Source: Candidatus Magasanikbacteria bacterium UBA922 | GTDB lineage: Bacteria; Patescibacteriota; Patescibacteriia; Magasanikbacterales; UBA922 | Assembly: GCA_002293825.1 (NCBI GenBank) | Contig: DBDW01000003.1 | Location: 1-61,383 of the forward strand | DNA length: 61,383 nucleotides | Direction: 5' to 3' | Notes under the pieces: generated by a model | Database searches by the model: none | What the model was told of the DNA's origin: nothing | Seen by the model: the letters and a program-made list of their open reading frames with translations, nothing else | Shown here: piece after piece, positions 2,721-23,269 of the stretch | How the letters are laid out: each line of letters starts with the position of its first letter | How positions within the stretch are numbered: position 1 is the stretch's first letter | Translations under genes and position numbers: made by a program

Positions 2721-4103
2721 ATGTCTGTCATTGATATCAAAAATTTGTCGGTTACGTATTTTTTGGGAAAAAGTAATGAGGTCAAGGCGCTTGCGGACGT
2801 CAATCTTCAGATTGAGCCTGGCGAATTTATTATTTTTTTCGGCTCATCTGGATGTGGTAAATCTACCTTATTGTACACAATTGCAGGACTCGAGCGTCCT
2901 ACCACAGGTACGGTGCAGGTTGCGGGGATCGATCTTGCGCACATGAAGAACAAAGAGCTTGAACATTATCGACAGAGTACGATTGGGATGGTGTTTCAGG
3001 CATTTCATCTTATCCCATCTCTTTCGGTGGTAAAAAATATCATGCTTCCACGAATGGCGATTGGTGCTGATCCAAAAGAACGTCGCGTCGAAGCTGAGCG
3101 TCTCATGAAATATTTTGGTGTATATGAACAGCGAAATAAACTACCTACGGAATTATCAGGAGGTCAGCAGCAACGTGTGGCGATTTGTCGAGCACTTGTC
3201 AATAATCCTGATATTATTTTTGCCGATGAGCCGGTAGGAAATCTTGATTCCAAGTCAGCGCATGATGTACTGGGTCTTATTCAGGAATTGAATGTGAAGG
3301 GTAAAAAAACTGTTATTTTGGTTACTCATGATCCGTCTCATCTTGATATTGCTGATCGAGTTTTTTTTATGAAAGATGGAAGAGTGCTTGATGTCAAGGT
3401 TAATGCCCAGACACGAAAAATCACTCCGCTTTCTACGGGAACTACTCAGACCACTCCTGGGGCACTATTATCTTCTTCAGCTGAAGATAAAAAAGAAGAT
3501 TCTGAATTTGCACGTGCCTTACTTGAATATAAGGCAAAGGAGGTGGCTCTCGAAGCGCTCACTGGACTGAATAGTGATGAGATTACACATATCGAACGAT
3601 ATGTGAGAGATATTTTATTGCGTCATCCTCGAGCTGCTACAAAAGAACTTGAGCAGTATTTGGTGGCTGATTTTGAGCATGGGGGTGGTCCTGAACTGAA
3701 TCGTAAAGTAGCACGTCGACTTGTCGAAAAAATACGTACTACGACAGAAGAGATTCGACGTCTAAGTGCGTCACTTACTCATACTGAATCACGCTCGACT
3801 GCCACTATTCGTCGACTTCGTATGTATTTGCTTGAAACGTTTAATGTTACGGTACACAGTACAGATGCATTGTCTGCAATAGATGAAGCAATCAGTGATC
3901 GTATGAATGGCTCTACTGATCGCAAGGGTGTGCAGGCAAAACTTGATATTTCAATTGCTGAGGGTGGTGCGGGTATTAATCGCAGAATTGCAAAGAAAAT
4001 GGCAAAACATCTTGATTTGATTGTGCGAGGGCGCTATCCGTCACCGATCGAGCATCCTTCTTTGGAGAAGCCGATTTCTAAAAAACATTCTCATCATTCG
4101 TAG
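2721..4103 (+). CDS. ABC transporter ATP-binding protein (MacB/LolD-like) with a ~230-aa non-ABC C-terminal extension
   Basis: Walker A GSSGCGKST, signature LSGGQQQRV, Walker B IIFADEP, H-loop VTHD. Residues ~231-460 are a helical, charged extension with no ABC motifs. Confidence 0.85.
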   Translation: MSVIDIKNLSVTYFLGKSNEVKALADVNLQIEPGEFIIFFGSSGCGKSTLLYTIAGLERPTTGTVQVAGIDLAHMKNKELEHYRQSTIGMVFQAFHLIPSLSVVKNIMLPRMAIGADPKERRVEAERLMKYFGVYEQRNKLPTELSGGQQQRVAICRALVNNPDIIFADEPVGNLDSKSAHDVLGLIQELNVKGKKTVILVTHDPSHLDIADRVFFMKDGRVLDVKVNAQTRKITPLSTGTTQTTPGALLSSSAEDKKEDSEFARALLEYKAKEVALEALTGLNSDEITHIERYVRDILLRHPRAATKELEQYLVADFEHGGGPELNRKVARRLVEKIRTTTEEIRRLSASLTHTESRSTATIRRLRMYLLETFNVTVHSTDALSAIDEAISDRMNGSTDRKGVQAKLDISIAEGGAGINRRIAKKMAKHLDLIVRGRYPSPIEHPSLEKPISKKHSHHS

Positions 4104-4104
4104 T

Positions 4105-5385
4105 ATGAAACGCTCTTCACGATCACATAGTTCTCCTGCGAATACGGTCCCTGCTAATATGCAGGGTCATCGTATGACGTTTGGTGATATTTTTGCGCTT
4201 TCTACTCGTATTTTTCGTACCCGCCCACTTCGTACCTCACTCACGATTTTGGGTATGAGTGTGGGTATTGGTGCCGTATTGTTTCTTGTTTCCCTTGGGT
4301 ACGGTTTGCAGGAAACAGTATTGAATCGTATCACTACGGCTGATGCGCTTCTCAGTCTCGATGTTACTGCCGGAGAATCTGAATTGATTGCCCTTGATCC
4401 GGTGAGTGTGGATAAAATTGCCACATTACCACATGTGGCTGAAGTGAGTCCGGTTGTTGCTATGCCAGCTGAAACTGCGCTCAATGATGTTGCAGGTTCG
4501 TTGATATTGTATTCGGTCAAACCTTCTTTTTTTAATTTGAGCGGCCTTATACCTTCATATGGACGATTGTTTGGCGAAGCTGAAGGTGGTGTGGTTGCGC
4601 GAGAAATTGTGGTGTCGTCAGCGTTGGCAAAGATTTTCAATATTGAACCCGACCAAATTTTGGGTAAAAGTATTTCTCTCACAGCTTTTGTCTCTAGCGC
4701 AACTTCGACCGAAGAGGATACGATATCAGTGGTCCAACTTCCTGAACCTTTTACGATTGTGGGAGTTATTGATGACGATAAGGAAGGTTTTGTATATGCT
4801 CCATTATCCCACATGACAGAGGTCCCTGTTGGAAGATATATTGGGGTAAAAGTAAAAGTCGAATCATCTGAATACATGGAATCTCTTCGTGAACAGATTA
4901 TTGGTATGGGATTTTTTGTTTCAGTACTTCAAGATACGATTGATCAGGTTACCAAAATTTTCGTAGTGATACAGGTGGTGCTTGGTCTTTTTGGACTTAT
5001 TGCGTTGATTGTCTCTGCGATTGGAATGTTTAATACGATGACGGTGGTATTGCTTGAGCGTACCAATGAAATTGGTATTATGCGGTCAATTGGTGTTACC
5101 AAGGGTGATGTGCGAAAATTATTCTTGTTTGAATCATTGATTATGGGTTTTTTGGGTGGGTTAGGTGGCGTAGTTCTTGGTGTGTTTGGTGGATTTGTAG
5201 CGAATTTAGGTATCAATATTCTCGCAAAAAGTTTCGGTGGACAAGCGCTTGATTTGTTTAGCAGACCGCCTTCCTTTATCATTATCATTATTGTTTTTTC
5301 AACTGTGATTGGTTTTTTGACAGGAGTGTTTCCTGCGCGCCGTGCAGGAAAATTGAATCCACTTGATGCGTTGCGATACAAGTAG
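4105..5385 (+). CDS. ABC transporter permease, MacB/FtsX family
   Basis: N-terminal TM, large extracytoplasmic domain, C-terminal FtsX-type 3-TM module (ERTNEIGIMRSIGVTKGDVRKLFLFESL). The ATG at 4105 follows the upstream stop by 1 nt. The track start at 4021 overlaps the ATPase gene. Confidence 0.8.
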   Translation: MKRSSRSHSSPANTVPANMQGHRMTFGDIFALSTRIFRTRPLRTSLTILGMSVGIGAVLFLVSLGYGLQETVLNRITTADALLSLDVTAGESELIALDPVSVDKIATLPHVAEVSPVVAMPAETALNDVAGSLILYSVKPSFFNLSGLIPSYGRLFGEAEGGVVAREIVVSSALAKIFNIEPDQILGKSISLTAFVSSATSTEEDTISVVQLPEPFTIVGVIDDDKEGFVYAPLSHMTEVPVGRYIGVKVKVESSEYMESLREQIIGMGFFVSVLQDTIDQVTKIFVVIQVVLGLFGLIALIVSAIGMFNTMTVVLLERTNEIGIMRSIGVTKGDVRKLFLFESLIMGFLGGLGGVVLGVFGGFVANLGINILAKSFGGQALDLFSRPPSFIIIIIVFSTVIGFLTGVFPARRAGKLNPLDALRYK

Positions 5386-5438
5386 AACGTGGCAGTCTGT
5401 ACGCATTTTTTTGAGGAGTGTAGTGAGTGTTGTATACA

Positions 5439-5467
5439 TTGACAAAAAGGCTTTTCCCGAGTACACT
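5439..5467 (+). promoter_or_regulatory. Sigma70-type promoter TTGACA-17-TACACT for the glyQS leader
   Basis: TTGACA at 5439-5444, a 17-nt spacer, TACACT at 5462-5467. Confidence 0.6.
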
Positions 5468-13360: not shown

Positions 13361-13437
13361 GCGCGCCTAGCTCAGTTGGTTAGAGCATCTCGTTTACACC
13401 GAGAGGGTCGGGGGTTCGAATCCCTCGGCGCGCACCA
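13361..13437 (+). tRNA. tRNA-Val (anticodon UAC), CCA encoded
   Basis: Acceptor GCGCGCC/GGCGCGC, anticodon stem TCTCG/CGAGA, loop TTTACAC, T-loop TTCGAAT, 3' ACCA. Confidence 0.9.
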
Positions 13438-13520
13438 CTCGAACATGAACAATTAGCAATATTCAATTAACAGAAATCTTTTGTTAATTGCTCGTTGATA
13501 GTTGTTCATTTTTCATTCAT

Positions 13521-13593
13521 GCCGTCATAGCTCAGTTGGTAGAGCGCGTCCATGGTAAGGACGAGGTCTCCAGTTCAATCCTGGATGGCGGCT
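13521..13593 (+). tRNA. tRNA-Thr (anticodon GGU); CCA not encoded
   Basis: Acceptor GCCGTCA/TGGCGGC (one G-U), anticodon stem CGTCC/GGACG, loop ATGGTAA, T-arm TCCAG-TTCAATC-CTGGA. Confidence 0.88.
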
Positions 13594-13598
13594 CAGTT

Positions 13599-18318: not shown

Positions 18319-20109
18319 ATGGAAATTCGAAACATTGCAATTATCGCACACGTTGACCACGGTAAGACCACCTTGACCGATGCGTTGCTTCGTGAATGTG
18401 GAATGATTACTGAAGAAGGTCAGACGATGGATTCAAACACACTTGAACGAGAGCGTGGTATTACGATTTACGCAAAAAACACTTCTTTATTTTACAAAGG
18501 AACTAAGGTGAATATTGTAGATACTCCGGGTCACGCAGATTTTGGTTCAGAAGTAGAGCGTGTGTTGCGATCGATTGATTCAGTGTTATTGGTAGTCGAT
18601 GCGCAAGAAGGTCCGATGCCTCAGACAAAATTTGTATTGAAAAAATCTCTTGAAATTGGGCTCAAGCCGATTGTGGTTTTGAATAAAATTGATAAGCCTG
18701 CTGCGAGACCACAGGAAGTGCATGACATGGTTTTGGAATTGTTTATGGATCTCGGAGCAAATGATGAACAACTCAACTTTGTTACGGTGTACGCCATTGG
18801 TAAACTTGGAATTGCAAAAAAGAATTTGACTGATGAATCAAGTACTCTTGAGCCGTTGCTCGACACAATTTTAGAATGTGTTCCACCTGCTCCACATGAT
18901 ATTACAAAACCACTTCGCATGCAGCCATTCAATCTTGCGTATGATAATTATCTTGGTCGTCTTGCGGTCGGACGTATTTATGAAGGTGTGGTAAAACAAG
19001 GTGATAAAGTGTTTGTAAAAAATATTGACGGGAGTACTCGTAGTGGCAACATTACCAAAATTCAAAATTTCAAAGGATTTGCACGTGAAGAAGTGGCGAG
19101 TGCTGAAGCGGGGGATATTGTGATGATTGCAGGAATCCCTGATATTTATATTGGAGAAACAATTTGTGCGTCGAGTGATCAAGAACCATTGCCTGCGATC
19201 AAGGTAGATGATCCTACTATTAGTATGGATATTCTTGTCAATAATTCTCCTTTTGCAGGTAAAGAAGGAACATTTGTGACGAGTCGACAGATTCGCGAAC
19301 GATTGGAAAAAGAACTTGAAGTCAATGTGGGATTACAAATTGATTTTTCGAATTCTGATCGATTTACGGTATATGGACGTGGAGAAATGCATATTGCGAT
19401 TTTGCTTGAAAACATGCGACGTGAAGGATATGAACTTCAGGTTAGTCAGCCTAAAGTTATTATCAAAGAAGAAAATGGTGAGAAAGTGGAACCATTTGAA
19501 GAGGTGACGATTGATGTGCCTGATACCTACACCGGAGCGGTGATTGAAAAGATGAGTAAACGAAAAGGAATGATGGTAAACATGATGCCAGAAGGCGGAC
19601 ATACTCGAATTATTTTTGAAATTCCCACTCGAGGATTGCTCGGATATCGTGGTGAATTTGTCATGGATACTCGAGGAGAGGGAATTATGTCATCACGTGT
19701 GATCGGATTCCGTCCTCATGTGGGTGCGATCGAAAAACGTGAAGTAGGCAGTATGATTTCTGGTGAGACTGGCAAAGCACTTGGATACTCACTCTTCAAT
19801 CTTCAGGATCGTGGTGTACTGTATATTGGGCCAACTACTGAAGTGTATGAAGGAATGGTTATCGGAAATGTATCCAAAGGTCAGGACATGACCGTGAACC
19901 CAATCAAGGGAAAGAAACTTACCAATATGCGTGCGAGTGGAAGTGATGATGCGATTATTCTTACCCCGCCATTTGAAATTACACTTGAACGTGGAATGGA
20001 AATTATGAGTGATGATGAATATCTTGAAATTACGCCTACAAGTACTCGTCTCAGAAAGAAATGGTTGACTGAGGTTGAAAGAAATAGAAACAAGAGAACT
20101 GTTGCGTAA
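18319..20109 (+). CDS. typA: Translational GTPase TypA/BipA
   Basis: MEIRNIAIIAHVDHGKTTLTDALL, DTPGHADF and NKID motifs; length and C-terminal domain are typical of BipA. Confidence 0.92.
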   Translation: MEIRNIAIIAHVDHGKTTLTDALLRECGMITEEGQTMDSNTLERERGITIYAKNTSLFYKGTKVNIVDTPGHADFGSEVERVLRSIDSVLLVVDAQEGPMPQTKFVLKKSLEIGLKPIVVLNKIDKPAARPQEVHDMVLELFMDLGANDEQLNFVTVYAIGKLGIAKKNLTDESSTLEPLLDTILECVPPAPHDITKPLRMQPFNLAYDNYLGRLAVGRIYEGVVKQGDKVFVKNIDGSTRSGNITKIQNFKGFAREEVASAEAGDIVMIAGIPDIYIGETICASSDQEPLPAIKVDDPTISMDILVNNSPFAGKEGTFVTSRQIRERLEKELEVNVGLQIDFSNSDRFTVYGRGEMHIAILLENMRREGYELQVSQPKVIIKEENGEKVEPFEEVTIDVPDTYTGAVIEKMSKRKGMMVNMMPEGGHTRIIFEIPTRGLLGYRGEFVMDTRGEGIMSSRVIGFRPHVGAIEKREVGSMISGETGKALGYSLFNLQDRGVLYIGPTTEVYEGMVIGNVSKGQDMTVNPIKGKKLTNMRASGSDDAIILTPPFEITLERGMEIMSDDEYLEITPTSTRLRKKWLTEVERNRNKRTVA

Positions 20110-20143
20110 CTGTGTTCGAGTGCTAGATTAGATTTTTTACTCT

Positions 20144-20186
20144 AAAGATTGGAGATTCTGAATTACGGTCTCCAATCTTTTTGTTT
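20144..20186 (+). terminator. Intrinsic terminator after typA
   Basis: 12-bp stem AAAGATTGGAGA/TCTCCAATCTTT, 13-nt loop, T-rich tail. Confidence 0.8.
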
Positions 20187-20208
20187 TAACCCATGAGTGA
20201 GGTAGACC

Positions 20209-20237
20209 TTGAAAATATTTCAATAGTTCGTTATACT
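20209..20237 (+). promoter_or_regulatory. Promoter TTGAAA-17-TATACT upstream of the tRNA-Trp locus
   Basis: Hexamers at 20209-20214 and 20232-20237, 21 nt before the decayed tRNA copy. Confidence 0.55.
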
Positions 20238-20258
20238 GCGTTGGCAAATACAGATTAT

Positions 20259-20294
20259 GGGCGCGTGGTGAAATGGTGAGACTTTGGTCTCCAA
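20259..20294 (+). pseudogene. Decayed 5' half of tRNA-Trp (acceptor strand to anticodon CCA)
   Basis: 21/21 nt (20257-20277) and 9/9 nt (20286-20294) are identical to the intact tRNA-Trp 348 nt downstream. The 8-nt block between them breaks D-stem and anticodon-stem pairing. No matching 3' acceptor strand follows. Confidence 0.7.
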
Positions 20295-20643
20295 CCCCAC
20301 CCTTCGCGAAGGGTGGGACGATTCCTGTTGCTAGTCTATTGATTAAGGGGGAATTATGTATTATGTTTATTTGCTCAAGAGTGCTAAAGATAATGGGCTC
20401 TATATAGGTTATACGCACGATCTGCGTCGGAGATTTCATGAGCATACTAATGGAAAAGTTGATGCGACAAAACATCGCAGACCATTGAAACTTTTCTATT
20501 ACGAAGCTTATGAAACTGATAGTTTAGCGCGAGAAAGAGAAAGAAAGTTGAAACAATTTGGTTCAGCGTATATTGCACTTTTGAAACGTTTGCATGTGAA
20601 ATAAATGGGCGCGTGGTGAAATGGTATCACTAGGGTCTCCAAA
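20295..20643 (+). mobile_element. Candidate GIY-YIG cassette inserted in tRNA-Trp (palindrome + nuclease ORF + replacement tRNA 5' half)
   Basis: The segment is bounded by the two copies of the tRNA 5' half. It contains a perfect 22-nt palindrome (20296-20317), an SD and an 82-aa GIY-YIG ORF. The boundaries are inferred. Confidence 0.4.
20356..20604 (+). CDS. Stand-alone GIY-YIG nuclease domain protein (82 aa)
   Basis: YYVYLLKS...GLYIGYTHDLRRRFHEH...E matches the GIY-(10)-YIG, Arg and Glu pattern. SD AAGGGGG lies 5 nt upstream of the ATG. Confidence 0.8.
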   Translation: MYYVYLLKSAKDNGLYIGYTHDLRRRFHEHTNGKVDATKHRRPLKLFYYEAYETDSLARERERKLKQFGSAYIALLKRLHVK

Positions 20644-20680
20644 ACCTTCGTCGTCGGTTCGATTCCGGCCGCGCCTGCCA
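20607..20680 (+). tRNA. tRNA-Trp (anticodon CCA), CCA end encoded
   Basis: Acceptor GGGCGCG/CGCGCCT (G1-U72), D-arm GTGA-AATGGTA-TCAC, anticodon arm AGGGT-CTCCAAA-ACCTT, T-arm GTCGG-TTCGATT-CCGGC, discriminator G plus CCA. Confidence 0.85.
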
Positions 20681-20820
20681 GTTATTGCAAAAATTTTCAA
20701 TCTCGATTTTCACAAAAGGTGGAACGATTCTTACTACGTGTGTTTTGTATGCGTGCCTGGTAGGTATCGCATTTTATTATAAAATTTTACTTTTGTTACA
20801 AAATTATATATTTTGACAAT

Positions 20821-22932
20821 ATGAATGTGGATATTACTATTATTGTTCCGGTATATAATGAGAAGGATACTATTTTGGAATTACTTGATCGTCTCAAGAC
20901 TGTTTTTGATCAACAGCGTTTTCAGAGTGAGATATTGGTAATTGACGATGGTTCTACTGACGGTACGGTGCAATTATTACAACAATCGTTATTTGTTCGT
21001 GATCCTTTATTCACCTTTTTTTATCAAGAAAAAAATCAAGGTAAAGGATCTGCGATACATGCTGGATTGAAACAAGCAAAAGGGGAATACACTATTATTC
21101 AGGATGCTGATCTTGAATACGATCCTCGTGATATTGTCTCCTTATATCAATATGCGGTTTCGCGTAATGAATCGGTGGTGTATGGATCACGTAATTTGCG
21201 CGAAGGCCAGCAAGGTTCGTTTATGTTTTATTGGGGCGGACGTCTACTCACTTGGATCACGAATGTACTGTTTCGCCAAAAAATAACTGATGAAGCTACG
21301 TGCTACAAGCTTGCCAAAACCTCTCTTCTTCGTTCGTTTCATTTGAGAGAGCAAGGGTTTGGCTTTTGTCCCGAGGTTACGGCTCACATTGCTCGAAGTG
21401 GAATTCGAATTAAAGAACTTCCTATTTCCTATACACCCCGATCAAAACATGATGGAAAAAAAATAAATTGGCGAGATGGTATTATCGCAATTGCAATATT
21501 GATAAAATTTAAATTTTCTAATTTTCGTAAACATATTCCAGCTATTGTACTTGTTGTTTTTGGCTTGTTTGTGTACTTGCTGACTTGGCAACATCATTTC
21601 GGTGGATATGAAGCAGAAACTGCCGAATCAGCGATAAAACTATTTCATGGGGAGTATGATATACGACGGGCAGGAATATCTTCACTCATATTGTATGCTC
21701 CATTTATTGTGTTGTACGAGATTTTTGGGTTGAGTGATTTTTCTCATTTATCTTTTGTTCCTTTATTTTACACTGCTCTTACGGGAGGATTGTTATATTA
21801 TGTTTTATTGTATCTTACAGATAAAAAATCAGTGAGTATCGTGATGAGTGCAATTATCATGGTGGGGTCGATCATGTGGCCATATACAAATATTGGCATG
21901 GAGTATCAGGTGATGTTTTATCTGACTTTACTTTTGTTGTCTTTACTTAGGTGGAAGCTGGGTAAGGGAACATTGTTGTTTCCGGCACTTGTTTTTTCAT
22001 TGTTGTGTATTGCAAAATCATATGGTCCCATGTTTGGTCTCCCTGTAGTAATGTTTATTATTTTTTCTCGCACACATATTATATTGGATCATGTCAAAAA
22101 TATTGCACGAGTTCTTATTCCTGCAGGAATTGTTTTTATATCATATATTTTTTTACAGTGGCATGTGTATGGTTCTGTTACGGGTGTTTATTCTCTGAGT
22201 CATGAGTTTCAGATTTGGAATTGGTGGGAAGGTTTTTATGGTATATTTTTTTCTATTGGGAAAAGTATTTTTTTATTCAGCCCACTTCTTTTTTTGGTGG
22301 TGTATTATATTCCTCGTTTTTGTAGAGAACACCGTGAGACTGCGTGGTATATTTTTTCGTCATTTATTCTATTATTTATCATGACAGCGCCTTTCAGTTA
22401 TTGGACTGACGAGACACTTGGAGTTCGTAAACTAGTGCCTATTATCCCACTCCTTCACATACCACTTTTGTATTTATTTGAATCTATTTTTGTCGGGGGA
22501 AAAATTCGTATCTGGTTATTTGCGTTGTTTCTTGGTGGAGCTATATATATACAAATACTTGGAGCCTCATATTATTATGGTACCCAATTGAGTGTATTGC
22601 GTAAGGCAGATTTAGATTCACTACATCATATGCGCTATACCCCCGAACTCTCGGTGCTTTCGCTGCATAATACACTTTTATATAATTTTATTTTTACTCA
22701 GGATAAAAAATTGTTGTACCATGAAGAAACGTGGTTTCGGTGGACTGTACCTTCACCTGATATGATTTTGAATCATGCAAAAATTGATTTGGCAGAACAC
22801 ACAATACCTGACATTGTGTGGTTTCGCGGGTCTCCTGTGCATTTTGTTGTTTTTTGGGCGTTATTATCTGGCACGTTATTATCTAGTTATTTAATTTTTT
22901 GTTTGGTTCGAAACGATAATACATATAAATAG
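20821..22932 (+). CDS. Fusion protein: GT2 polyprenol-phosphate glycosyltransferase-like domain + ~470-aa polytopic membrane domain (GT-C/ArnT-like?)
   Basis: N-terminus has [20 protein letters not shown] and QDADLEYDP (GT-A fold, DxD), as in Dpm1/ArnC. It is followed by more than 12 predicted TMs with a loop after TM1 ([20 protein letters not shown]). Confidence 0.65.
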
Positions 22933-22933
22933 A

Positions 22934-23269
22934 ATGTTATACTACATGATGCGTATGAAACATAATTTTTTTTATAGTTTACTTTTTCTTTGCGTGGTTG
23001 GCATGATTGGTGTCTATTATTTTTTATATACACCTTCTGTGGTTACAGGTAATGTTGTTAAACATTCTGAAATTGTGGATCAATGGGGCGTACAGTCAAA
23101 AGGCATGTTATTTTCTCGCGATATTGTATATATACATGATTTACCAACTTCACTTCAAAAAGAAGGATTAGTGGTTGAGTGTAAGTATAAAGATAATTTT
23201 CGAGATGTAATTGGATTGGGAGATTGGGGAGTGGTAATTGATGGAAAGAATTGCATTTTCAAAGAGTAG
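22934..23269 (+). CDS. Small membrane-anchored hypothetical protein
   Basis: Begins 2 nt after the GT fusion gene. Single TM FFYSLLFLCVVGMIGVYYFLY. Confidence 0.45.
   Translation: MLYYMMRMKHNFFYSLLFLCVVGMIGVYYFLYTPSVVTGNVVKHSEIVDQWGVQSKGMLFSRDIVYIHDLPTSLQKEGLVVECKYKDNFRDVIGLGDWGVVIDGKNCIFKE

Follow-up and report, generated by a model that had tools for sequence, protein, structure and literature searches.

The window analysed here is a stretch of 61,383 nucleotides (nt; positions 1 to 61,383) of contig DBDW01000003.1 (assembly GCA_002293825.1) of Candidatus Magasanikbacteria bacterium UBA922, a member of the candidate phyla radiation (CPR, or Patescibacteria). The subject of this study is a locus within it at which a gene for an 82-amino-acid (aa) GIY-YIG nuclease stands between two copies of tRNA-Trp, the upstream copy being disabled by a palindrome and the downstream copy intact (Table 1). 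The disabled copy is termed T*, the palindrome P, and comparable loci of other genomes are given by handles of the form L001. A preliminary description of the locus had listed its repeats, palindrome, open reading frame (ORF), tRNA and promoter, all of which were recovered at the same positions when the sequence was re-read and searched for repeats. Two blocks are shared by the tRNA copies, 20257-20277 being identical to 20605-20625 (21/21) and 20286-20294 to 20634-20642 (9/9), and the repeat search returned them as a single family (D1) of 38 nt with copies spaced 348 nt apart. The 8 nt between the blocks differ (GAGACTTT upstream, at 20278-20285, versus ATCACTAG); GAGACTTT takes the place of the 3' strand of the D-stem and, by fold prediction, forms a hairpin with GUCUC. 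The downstream copy was recognised as tRNA-Trp(CCA) by ARAGORN and by the Rfam tRNA model (57.7 bits, E=1.3e-11), folds as the complete cloverleaf that had been described, and is the only tRNA-Trp found. The ORF is alone between T* and the tRNA, which agrees with the earlier view of a free-standing GIY-YIG gene that has neither intron nor integrase. A promoter-like site lies upstream of the broken copy, again as had been noted; it is the sole such site on the + strand ahead of the tRNA, none being found between ORF and tRNA in a promoter scan, and its hexamers are kept in L085, L001, L002, L003 and, as an orthologue, L091.

The nature of T* became apparent from its close relatives. The nearest homologues of the ORF (L001/L004, L002, L003 and L085) are 78-87% identical to it and lie in a DUF1189-GST-typA context like that of the window. 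The upstream copy of L002 is a full-length duplicate of tRNA-Trp, in which nt 1-36 are exact and the D arm, the 3' end and a 5-nt flank are intact, and the palindrome CCCCGCCCTTCGCGAAGGGCGGGG replaces only nt 38-55, that is, the 3' strand of the anticodon stem, the variable loop, the 5' strand of the T stem and the first two bases of the T loop. The upstream copy is therefore a whole tRNA-Trp copy with a palindrome in place of nt 38-55 and not, as had been supposed, a decaying 5' half. The ‘T-arm-like box’ of the preliminary description is present, but it is really the tRNA resuming at nt 56-62 after the palindrome, as seen in L002. The acceptor 3' strand of T* is gone in the window and kept in L002, whilst the 8-nt block GAGACTTT occurs in the window, L085, L001 and L003, is absent from L002 and is a derived change. 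Among the five relatives the core of T* (ATGGGCGCGTGGTGAAATGGT...GGTCTCCAA-P-CGATTCC) and the promoter hexamers are almost invariant, at a synonymous divergence (dS) of the ORF of 0.7-1.3 (leaving out the near-identical pair L001/L003), with synonymous sites saturated and with intergenic flanks that can no longer be aligned; the core must therefore be constrained or continually homogenised, and is not decaying. The single change within P among these relatives is compensatory, from A/T to G/C on both arms, and as the tRNA offers no template for P, at least P must be selected or actively symmetrised. The P hairpin of the window has a predicted folding energy of -16.6 kcal/mol (z -3.2).

The remnant of a second T* lies beyond the intact tRNA. 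The sequence GGTGGGACGATTCCT (20312-20326) had been reported to recur there in 13 of 15 positions (20718-20732), and this recurrence stands; it is, however, made up of a decayed right arm of P followed by tRNA nt 56-65, and CGATTCTTACTAC comprises these tRNA nucleotides with a tail as in the upstream T* of L085 and L001. The downstream T* is intact in L001, L010, L015, L023, L086 and others. No second ORF or cassette copy was found elsewhere in the window. The contig of L089, which has the closest TypA (94%), ends inside T* (4289-4430, at ...GGTGAAATGGT), so the tRNA repeat apparently breaks assemblies, and such loci may be under-represented in metagenome-assembled genomes (MAGs).

Table 1. 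Features of the tRNA-Trp locus, in window coordinates
Feature	Position	Strand	Remarks
typA terminator hairpin	20144..20180	+	12-bp stem, then T-run; context of the locus
Promoter-like site TTGAAA-17-TATACT	20209..20237	+	10/12 matches
T* (disabled tRNA-Trp copy), 5' arm	20259..20294	+	tRNA nt 1-37
Palindrome P	20295..20318	.	Perfect 22-mer (20296-20317) in a 24-nt family frame; replaces tRNA nt 38-55
T*, 3' arm CGATTCC	20319..20325	+	tRNA nt 56-62 (T loop and 3' strand of T stem)
Shine-Dalgarno-like AAGGGGGA	20345..20352	+	Precedes the ORF
82-aa GIY-YIG nuclease gene, UPF0213/Slx1 type	20356..20604	+	Catalytic residues conserved
Intact tRNA-Trp(CCA)	20607..20680	+	ORF stop lies 2 nt before tRNA nt 1
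Second, downstream T* remnant	20714..20737	+	Decayed right arm of P (AAAAGGTGGAA), then CGATTCTTACTAC

The arrangement is common to four to five syntenic relatives and, in outline, to dozens of unrelated loci, and is far beyond chance. A scan of one genome per species, queried with an alignment of 14 sequences (one of 40 being too diverse), gave 334 relatives, of which the best 80, nearly all from Patescibacteria MAGs, were examined. A tRNA gene on the same strand was found within 100 nt of the ORF in 60 of the 80 loci, and never one on the opposite strand, against a background density of 0.08 tRNA per kb; in 51 loci the tRNA lies downstream of the ORF, at a median gap of 14 nt. The partner is tRNA-Trp(CCA) in 43 cases, the others being Cys, Ser, Leu, Glu, Val, Ala, Gln and Arg. 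Across the ORF from the intact tRNA, a broken copy of it was recognised in at least 28 loci; in about 16 of the ~28 the broken copy is exact for 35-37 nt from tRNA +1, and in the loci examined its isotype (Trp, Cys, Ser or Glu) is that of the neighbouring tRNA. Further cassettes abutting tRNA genes, for which a search had been suggested, exist in large numbers. A Shine-Dalgarno sequence is missing at many of the loci. In a rough neighbour-joining tree the clades of the ORF follow tRNA identity, with a large Trp clade that encloses Cys and Glu, one clade for Ser-GCT and one for Gln/Lys, and host taxa are mixed within them. The anticodon arms of tRNA-Trp and tRNA-Cys differ by one base (GGTCTCCAAAACC versus GGTCTGCAAAACC), so a switch of target between these two is easy to envisage. 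Tandem arrays also occur, in the forms T*-ORF-T*-ORF-tRNA (L014), tRNA followed by two ORF-fragment units (L055), ORF-tRNA-ORF-3' half (L081) and tRNA followed by three T* (L024), and the single-cell genome AM-312-K06 has two copies on separate contigs, beside tRNA-Glu and tRNA-Trp. More elaborate nesting was observed in L071 (2557-2864 and 3270-3698), where an intact tRNA-Ile and an intact tRNA-Val sit within older copies of themselves; these older copies are split at all three loops, the anticodon loop at nt 36/37, with unrelated GC-rich hairpin pairs in the D and T loops. Intact tRNAs in L021 (3250-3370; 17 nt, GCAGTCGACAACGCTCT / AGAGCGTTGTCGACTGC) and in L071 (2680-2790; 11 nt) are also flanked by inverted repeats, which would pair into a long stem with the tRNA inside it.

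P proved to be a sequence family in its own right. Searched for only near these ORFs, and with self-complementary arms required, it is represented by 74 copies of 44 distinct sequences in 51 loci, and in 40 of the 80 loci a copy lies no more than 120 nt ahead of the start codon. Its junctions are stereotyped: on the left it follows tRNA nt 37 in 42 of the 74 copies and nt 36 in 10, and on the right it precedes nt ~56 (CGATTCC) in 40 and nt 33 in 10. Seven of 10 stem pairs show double changes among the 44 distinct copies, with a covariation score of 0.441 versus 0.151 in shuffled sequences, a comparison biased towards pairing by the requirement for self-complementary arms. The central TCGCGA is conserved. 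When the strand asymmetry of arm mismatches was used to tell an RNA from a DNA hairpin, C:A and T:G mismatches were both found to be common. Direct duplications of 3-5 nt flank about 20 copies (TCCA in nine, TGG in three, and GTCTC, CTAA, TCA, TAA and CAA in one each), all outside the class in which P lies between nt 37 and nt 56 (the 37-P-56 class), the 42 copies of which have no flanking duplication. Among surplus tRNA copies, all three loops (D, anticodon and T) can hold P, which was also seen inside another P and, on its own, between genes. The nested case is in L039 (2885-2945): in a broken tRNA-Trp copy, the D loop holds one P set into the centre of another, and CGAG is duplicated on either side. 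Solo copies away from any tRNA or GIY-YIG ORF are found in L003 (6029-6054), L063 (2264-2289) and L073 (2075-2098), that of L003 lying 3' of a gene and being followed by a T-run, like an intrinsic terminator.

The product of the ORF matches the GIY-YIG family PF01541 at 60.6 bits (cut-off 22.6; E=1.9e-16). Residues Y5, Y16, G18, R26, H30 and E62 are invariant across 40 homologues, and Y5, Y16, R26, H30 and E62 are taken by us to be equivalent to Y6, Y17, R27, H31 and E75 of I-TevI. Among relatives, leaving out the near-identical pair L001/L003, the ratio of non-synonymous to synonymous divergence (dN/dS) is 0.11-0.20; to judge from this ratio the ORF is under purifying selection, and it looks functional. 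At the sequence level the best structural matches were 1ZG2 (E=1.1e-5) and 1YWL (E=4.3e-5), both of the UPF0213 family (YhbQ/YazA). The AlphaFold model (pLDDT 95) shows the GIY-YIG fold, a three-stranded sheet flanked by helices, and a Foldseek search with it returned 1ZG2 first and then the Slx1 structure 7CQ3 (TMq 0.71, root-mean-square deviation 1.6 Å), with I-TevI at TMq 0.48 and UvrC also matched. By sequence and predicted structure, then, the protein is a UPF0213/Slx1-type GIY-YIG nuclease. The UPF0213 family has been described as belonging to the Slx1 family of structure-selective nucleases (PMC7017083). Homology to the phage nuclease SegB or to Seg-family proteins was not detected, as tblastn against 50,697 phage records yielded just nine weak matches, to Listeria and Staphylococcus phages and one unclassified phage, and matches to PHROG were at E about 1e-3. 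An origin in phages was considered and rejected, there being only two matches in viral contigs beside the nine weak ones in phage records. One viral contig, from IMG/VR (L087, 144-529), has an ORF of 51% identity, behind which come a long GC-rich hairpin and tRNA-Lys(TTT), and the architecture is thus not strictly confined to cellular chromosomes.

TypA was used as the anchor in a search for sites that lack the cassette. In L091 (TypA 86% and GST 64% identical, in DUF1189-GST-typA synteny) the orthologous promoter is directly followed by tRNA-Trp, and T*, P and the ORF are all absent. This is the empty site that had been predicted, and it follows that the nuclease cassette of the window is an insertion or replacement at the tRNA gene; the limits first proposed for the cassette (20295-20643), on the other hand, are only one of several possible parsings. 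Every relative with TypA at 90% or more is occupied. With the window, L085/L089, L001, L002 and L003 occupied and L091 empty, the contrast between presence and absence at this locus is one between lineages and not within a population. L092 and L093 (TypA about 80%) were set aside as uninformative, being non-syntenic downstream of typA. A second empty tRNA-Trp lies behind rpmG in L083/L084. These genomes have a 79-aa GIY-YIG ORF, 43% identical, between tRNA-Val(TAC) and tRNA-Thr(GGT) (L084 2778-3272), and in the window (13361-13594) tRNA-Val and tRNA-Thr are 83 nt apart without an ORF, which constitutes a second presence/absence contrast. In L084 an ORF of 523 aa resembling a serine recombinase (3895-5466, - strand) directly adjoins the empty tRNA-Trp at its 3' end; L083, from the same site, diverges directly after the tRNA, and this looks like an element integrated at tRNA-Trp. 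The tRNA of the window differs from the syntenic tRNA of L091 at about 14 of 74 nt and from that of the non-syntenic, more distant L084 at 2 of 74. The D-arm strand of the window T* is likewise of the window tRNA type and not of the L091 type, and so does not mark T* out as the orphaned 5' half of the resident gene. Together, these sequence comparisons suggest that the cassette either brought the tRNA body with it or co-converted it; co-conversion, or the arrival of T*, ORF and tRNA as one block, would account for T* as well as an orphaned resident half would.

Among systems already described, SegB, a protein of about 220 aa with a DNA-binding C-terminal region, is the closest analogue. It is a free-standing GIY-YIG homing endonuclease encoded in the tRNA gene cluster of phages T4 and T6 (PMC2330249; PMC13096335). 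SegB shows a significant association with tRNA genes, within which it cleaves at RAWTSGAAC (the T loop in reverse complement), and segB and tRNA are amplified in tandem and inherited together in a manner that depends on the nuclease and on recombination; SegB has a C-terminal region beyond the GIY-YIG domain, and a C-terminally truncated variant has been described (PMC13096335). The window system resembles it in having a free-standing GIY-YIG gene linked to tRNA genes, whereas SegB is phage-borne, longer and accompanied by no palindrome-disabled tRNA copy, and the window protein has 82 aa and is chromosomal in CPR bacteria. UPF0213 proteins (YhbQ/YazA; PDB 1ZG2 and 1YWL) and the nuclease domain of Slx1 are like the window protein in sequence and fold; Slx1, however, needs Slx4 and has a zinc-finger domain, which the window protein lacks, and no link of the UPF0213 family to tRNA genes or to mobility was found in the literature searched. 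Free-standing endonuclease ORFs of organelles, such as the GIY-YIG ORF at atp6 of Allomyces, bring a replacement end for the gene and leave the displaced piece as a remnant. Here, too, a nuclease ORF would have been inserted with a duplicate of part of its target and the gene regenerated, but the Allomyces type concerns the 3' ends of mitochondrial protein genes, whilst the target here is a tRNA and the disabled copy is full-length, carries a palindrome and is conserved rather than decaying. Short GC-rich palindromic insertions in AT-rich genomes include the GC clusters of yeast mitochondria, repetitive extragenic palindromic (REP) elements and miniature inverted-repeat transposable elements (MITEs), and the enzymes that mobilise REP elements are of the HUH (RAYT) rather than the GIY-YIG type. 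P is like these in being short, GC-rich, hairpin-forming and multi-copy, with duplications outside its main class, and unlike them in being only 24 nt long and in its link with a GIY-YIG gene and with loops in surplus copies of tRNA. Integrase islands at tRNA genes and group I introns of the anticodon loop share with the locus a tRNA target that is kept functional and a break at the anticodon loop; in contrast to them, there is no integrase or ribozyme here, the 5' part is duplicated and the functional tRNA is uninterrupted. This architecture was not found described in the literature that was searched on GIY-YIG enzymes in connection with tRNA, CPR or palindromes. What is of a known kind is the free-standing GIY-YIG endonuclease gene linked to tRNA genes; what is new is the minimal Slx1-type enzyme, the palindrome-disabled tRNA copy with its stereotyped junctions, and chromosomal residence across the CPR.

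Taking these comparisons of sequence together, we consider it somewhat probable that the interval is one copy of a selfish tRNA-locus cassette of CPR/Patescibacteria, which would spread by nuclease-stimulated recombination via its tRNA-derived arms. The cassette would enter a site by nuclease-stimulated homologous recombination or gene conversion (homing), for which the tRNA-derived sequences flanking the ORF would act as portable homology arms, usable between species; with such arms as the homology, the intact tRNA would be regenerated or swapped for the incoming copy. The old tRNA promoter would transcribe T*, ORF and tRNA, and RNase P and RNase Z would free the tRNA from the nuclease mRNA; the tight spacing of ORF and tRNA noted above fits a predicted co-transcript of this kind. 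P may be a cis-element that forms a hairpin or cruciform and is itself prone to insertion, and it may be the feature recognised by the structure-selective nuclease, plausibly as its substrate. P would also render T* both non-functional and non-cleavable, by taking the place of nt 38-55 and of half the T-loop motif, and the junction of P with CGATTCC falls within the T-loop motif that is cut by SegB. Circular-intermediate (Campbell-type) and gapped-repair models were considered; these would explain both orders of ORF and tRNA, and the data fit them as well as they fit double-strand-break-repair homing. In its strongest form, which seems to us rather doubtful, the proposal would make the cassette an autonomous bacterial mobile element of a class not described before, with a minimal Slx1-type nuclease, its own 24-bp palindrome as the cis site, tRNA arms for entry across species, and a host tRNA that is carried along or overwritten.

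Several observations weigh against a selfish cassette. No DNA-binding module was found by domain search or in the model, the 82 aa amounting to the catalytic domain alone, so that the source of any target specificity is unexplained. Of the 80 homologous ORFs, about 20 are without a tRNA nearby and about half are without P in the 120 nt upstream. As T* is of the window type and not of the L091 type, insertion into a resident gene is not directly shown. The intact neighbouring tRNA keeps any target that is borne by the tRNA, which means that self-cleavage must be tolerated or avoided. Lastly, the five close relatives are all occupied, and ORF, T* and P have been constrained over a dS of about 1, which fits domestication equally well. 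On that alternative, which we rate as rather unlikely, a local duplication was followed by domestication: the nuclease would be long-resident or useful to the host, and T*, having arisen by nuclease-driven tandem amplification, would be kept as a cis-acting 5' leader with a role in RNase P/Z processing, mRNA stability or translational control of the nuclease, and not as a scar or homing arm. The near-invariance of the T* core and P beside unalignable flanks and the low dN/dS are as expected of it, SegB-type amplification does yield tandem nuclease-tRNA repeats such as are seen in the arrays here, and the AAGGGGGA of the window is predicted to pair with GAUUCCU of the T* tail. In L002, T* even folds (z -3.6) into an acceptor stem and a D arm with a single long arm beside them. 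The idea that T* conserves a tRNA-like fold was nonetheless rejected, as such a fold exists only where the acceptor 3' strand has been kept (L002); the strand is missing from the window, from four of five close relatives and from most loci. Domestication is also difficult to reconcile with the patchy spread, the empty syntenic site, the varied tRNA partners, the several copies per genome and the mixed host taxa, and with the many loci that have no Shine-Dalgarno sequence.

The remaining explanations differ in what they take the active agent to be. P itself might be the primary mobile agent, a 24-bp insertion element with the GIY-YIG protein as its nuclease and with surplus tRNA copies as places where its presence is tolerated, an account that partly overlaps with the selfish cassette and that we hold to be distinctly unlikely. 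It would explain the short duplications around copies outside the 37-P-56 class, the positions of P in three tRNA loops, in another P and between genes, the covarying arms and conserved centre, and the likeness of the protein to Slx1, a nuclease type known for structure-selective cutting (PMC7017083). It sits less well with the dominant form (42 of 74), which has no duplication and shows the identical 37-P-56 replacement at Trp and Cys tRNAs; this uniformity points to inheritance of the whole T* unit, and the Glu copies of P share only the nt-56 junction with the class. Nor is any mechanism known for the copying of a 24-bp palindrome, and P was ascertained near these ORFs only. It is highly unlikely, in our view, that the transcript of T* is a guide-like RNA whose arms pair with the target tRNA gene and whose P hairpin is a protein scaffold directing the nuclease. 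Such a role would suit a nuclease that has no DNA-binding domain, arms that match the local tRNA, and a conserved hairpin just upstream of the ORF in one transcription unit, but an RNA-guided GIY-YIG enzyme has no known precedent, P reads as a palindrome right through its centre (as is more usual for an element that acts at the DNA level), mismatches in its arms are not skewed by strand towards G-U pairing, and the adjacent intact tRNA would be a self-target. Exceedingly improbable is a classical integrase island at the tRNA gene, or a group I intron with its homing endonuclease in the anticodon loop. The break in the upstream copy does fall in the anticodon loop, integration at tRNA genes is a classical event, and L084 has a serine recombinase beside its tRNA-Trp; however, an Rfam scan of 19900-21000 at E<=10 gave only the tRNA, with no intron, ribozyme, T-box or other RNA and, in agreement with the preliminary description, no match to the upstream copy as a functional tRNA. 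The downstream tRNA is moreover complete by itself, and the duplicated part is nt 1-37 with 56-62, i.e. the 5' part and not the 3' end. With no ribozyme model matched and no recombinase in the interval, an integrase or intron origin was rejected.

The surroundings of the locus in the window were also compared with those in its relatives. The 3' arm of the typA terminator contains GGTCTCCAA, which is identical to tRNA-Trp nt 29-37 (the anticodon arm); the terminator of L085 has GGTCTTCAA at the equivalent place, and those of L001 and L002 are unrelated to that of the window. The occurrence of GGTCTCCAA in the terminator may be due to chance or may be a recruited remnant of an older T* fragment. 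The tRNA-Trp of the window has an encoded 3' CCA (…GCCTGCCA), which is not encoded in those of L001, L002 and L003 (…GCCTGCTG, GCAA and GCTA, respectively). Between tRNA-Trp and a DEAD-box helicase gene, the window alone has a GT2 glycosyltransferase (703 aa) and a 111-aa ORF (20821-23269); the same interval holds a DUF1761 gene in L002 (4465-6347) and PDZ and other genes in L001. From comparison of the window with L002 and L003, the region 3' of tRNA-Trp is a variable hot spot.

If the selfish-cassette account is true, it would provide the widespread tiny GIY-YIG nucleases of the UPF0213/YhbQ type, to which no function has been assigned, with a concrete context, namely parasitism of tRNA loci, and the recently shown relationship between SegB and tRNA would reach beyond phages into chromosomes of ultra-small bacteria. 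The account would also offer a compact cis-element, a palindrome in a disabled tRNA, whose stereotyped junctions make it open to biochemistry. The finding is relevant to annotation, given the broken tRNA copies and the assembly breaks at these loci, and bears on the tolerance of streamlined genomes for mobile DNA. Were the element indeed autonomous, there would be horizontal turnover of the tRNA-Trp and tRNA-Cys genes in the CPR. The selfish-cassette account itself would suggest that, in CPR bacteria, essential single-copy tRNA genes owe their expression to a selfish cassette in which they lie, and that these genes may be horizontally replaced.

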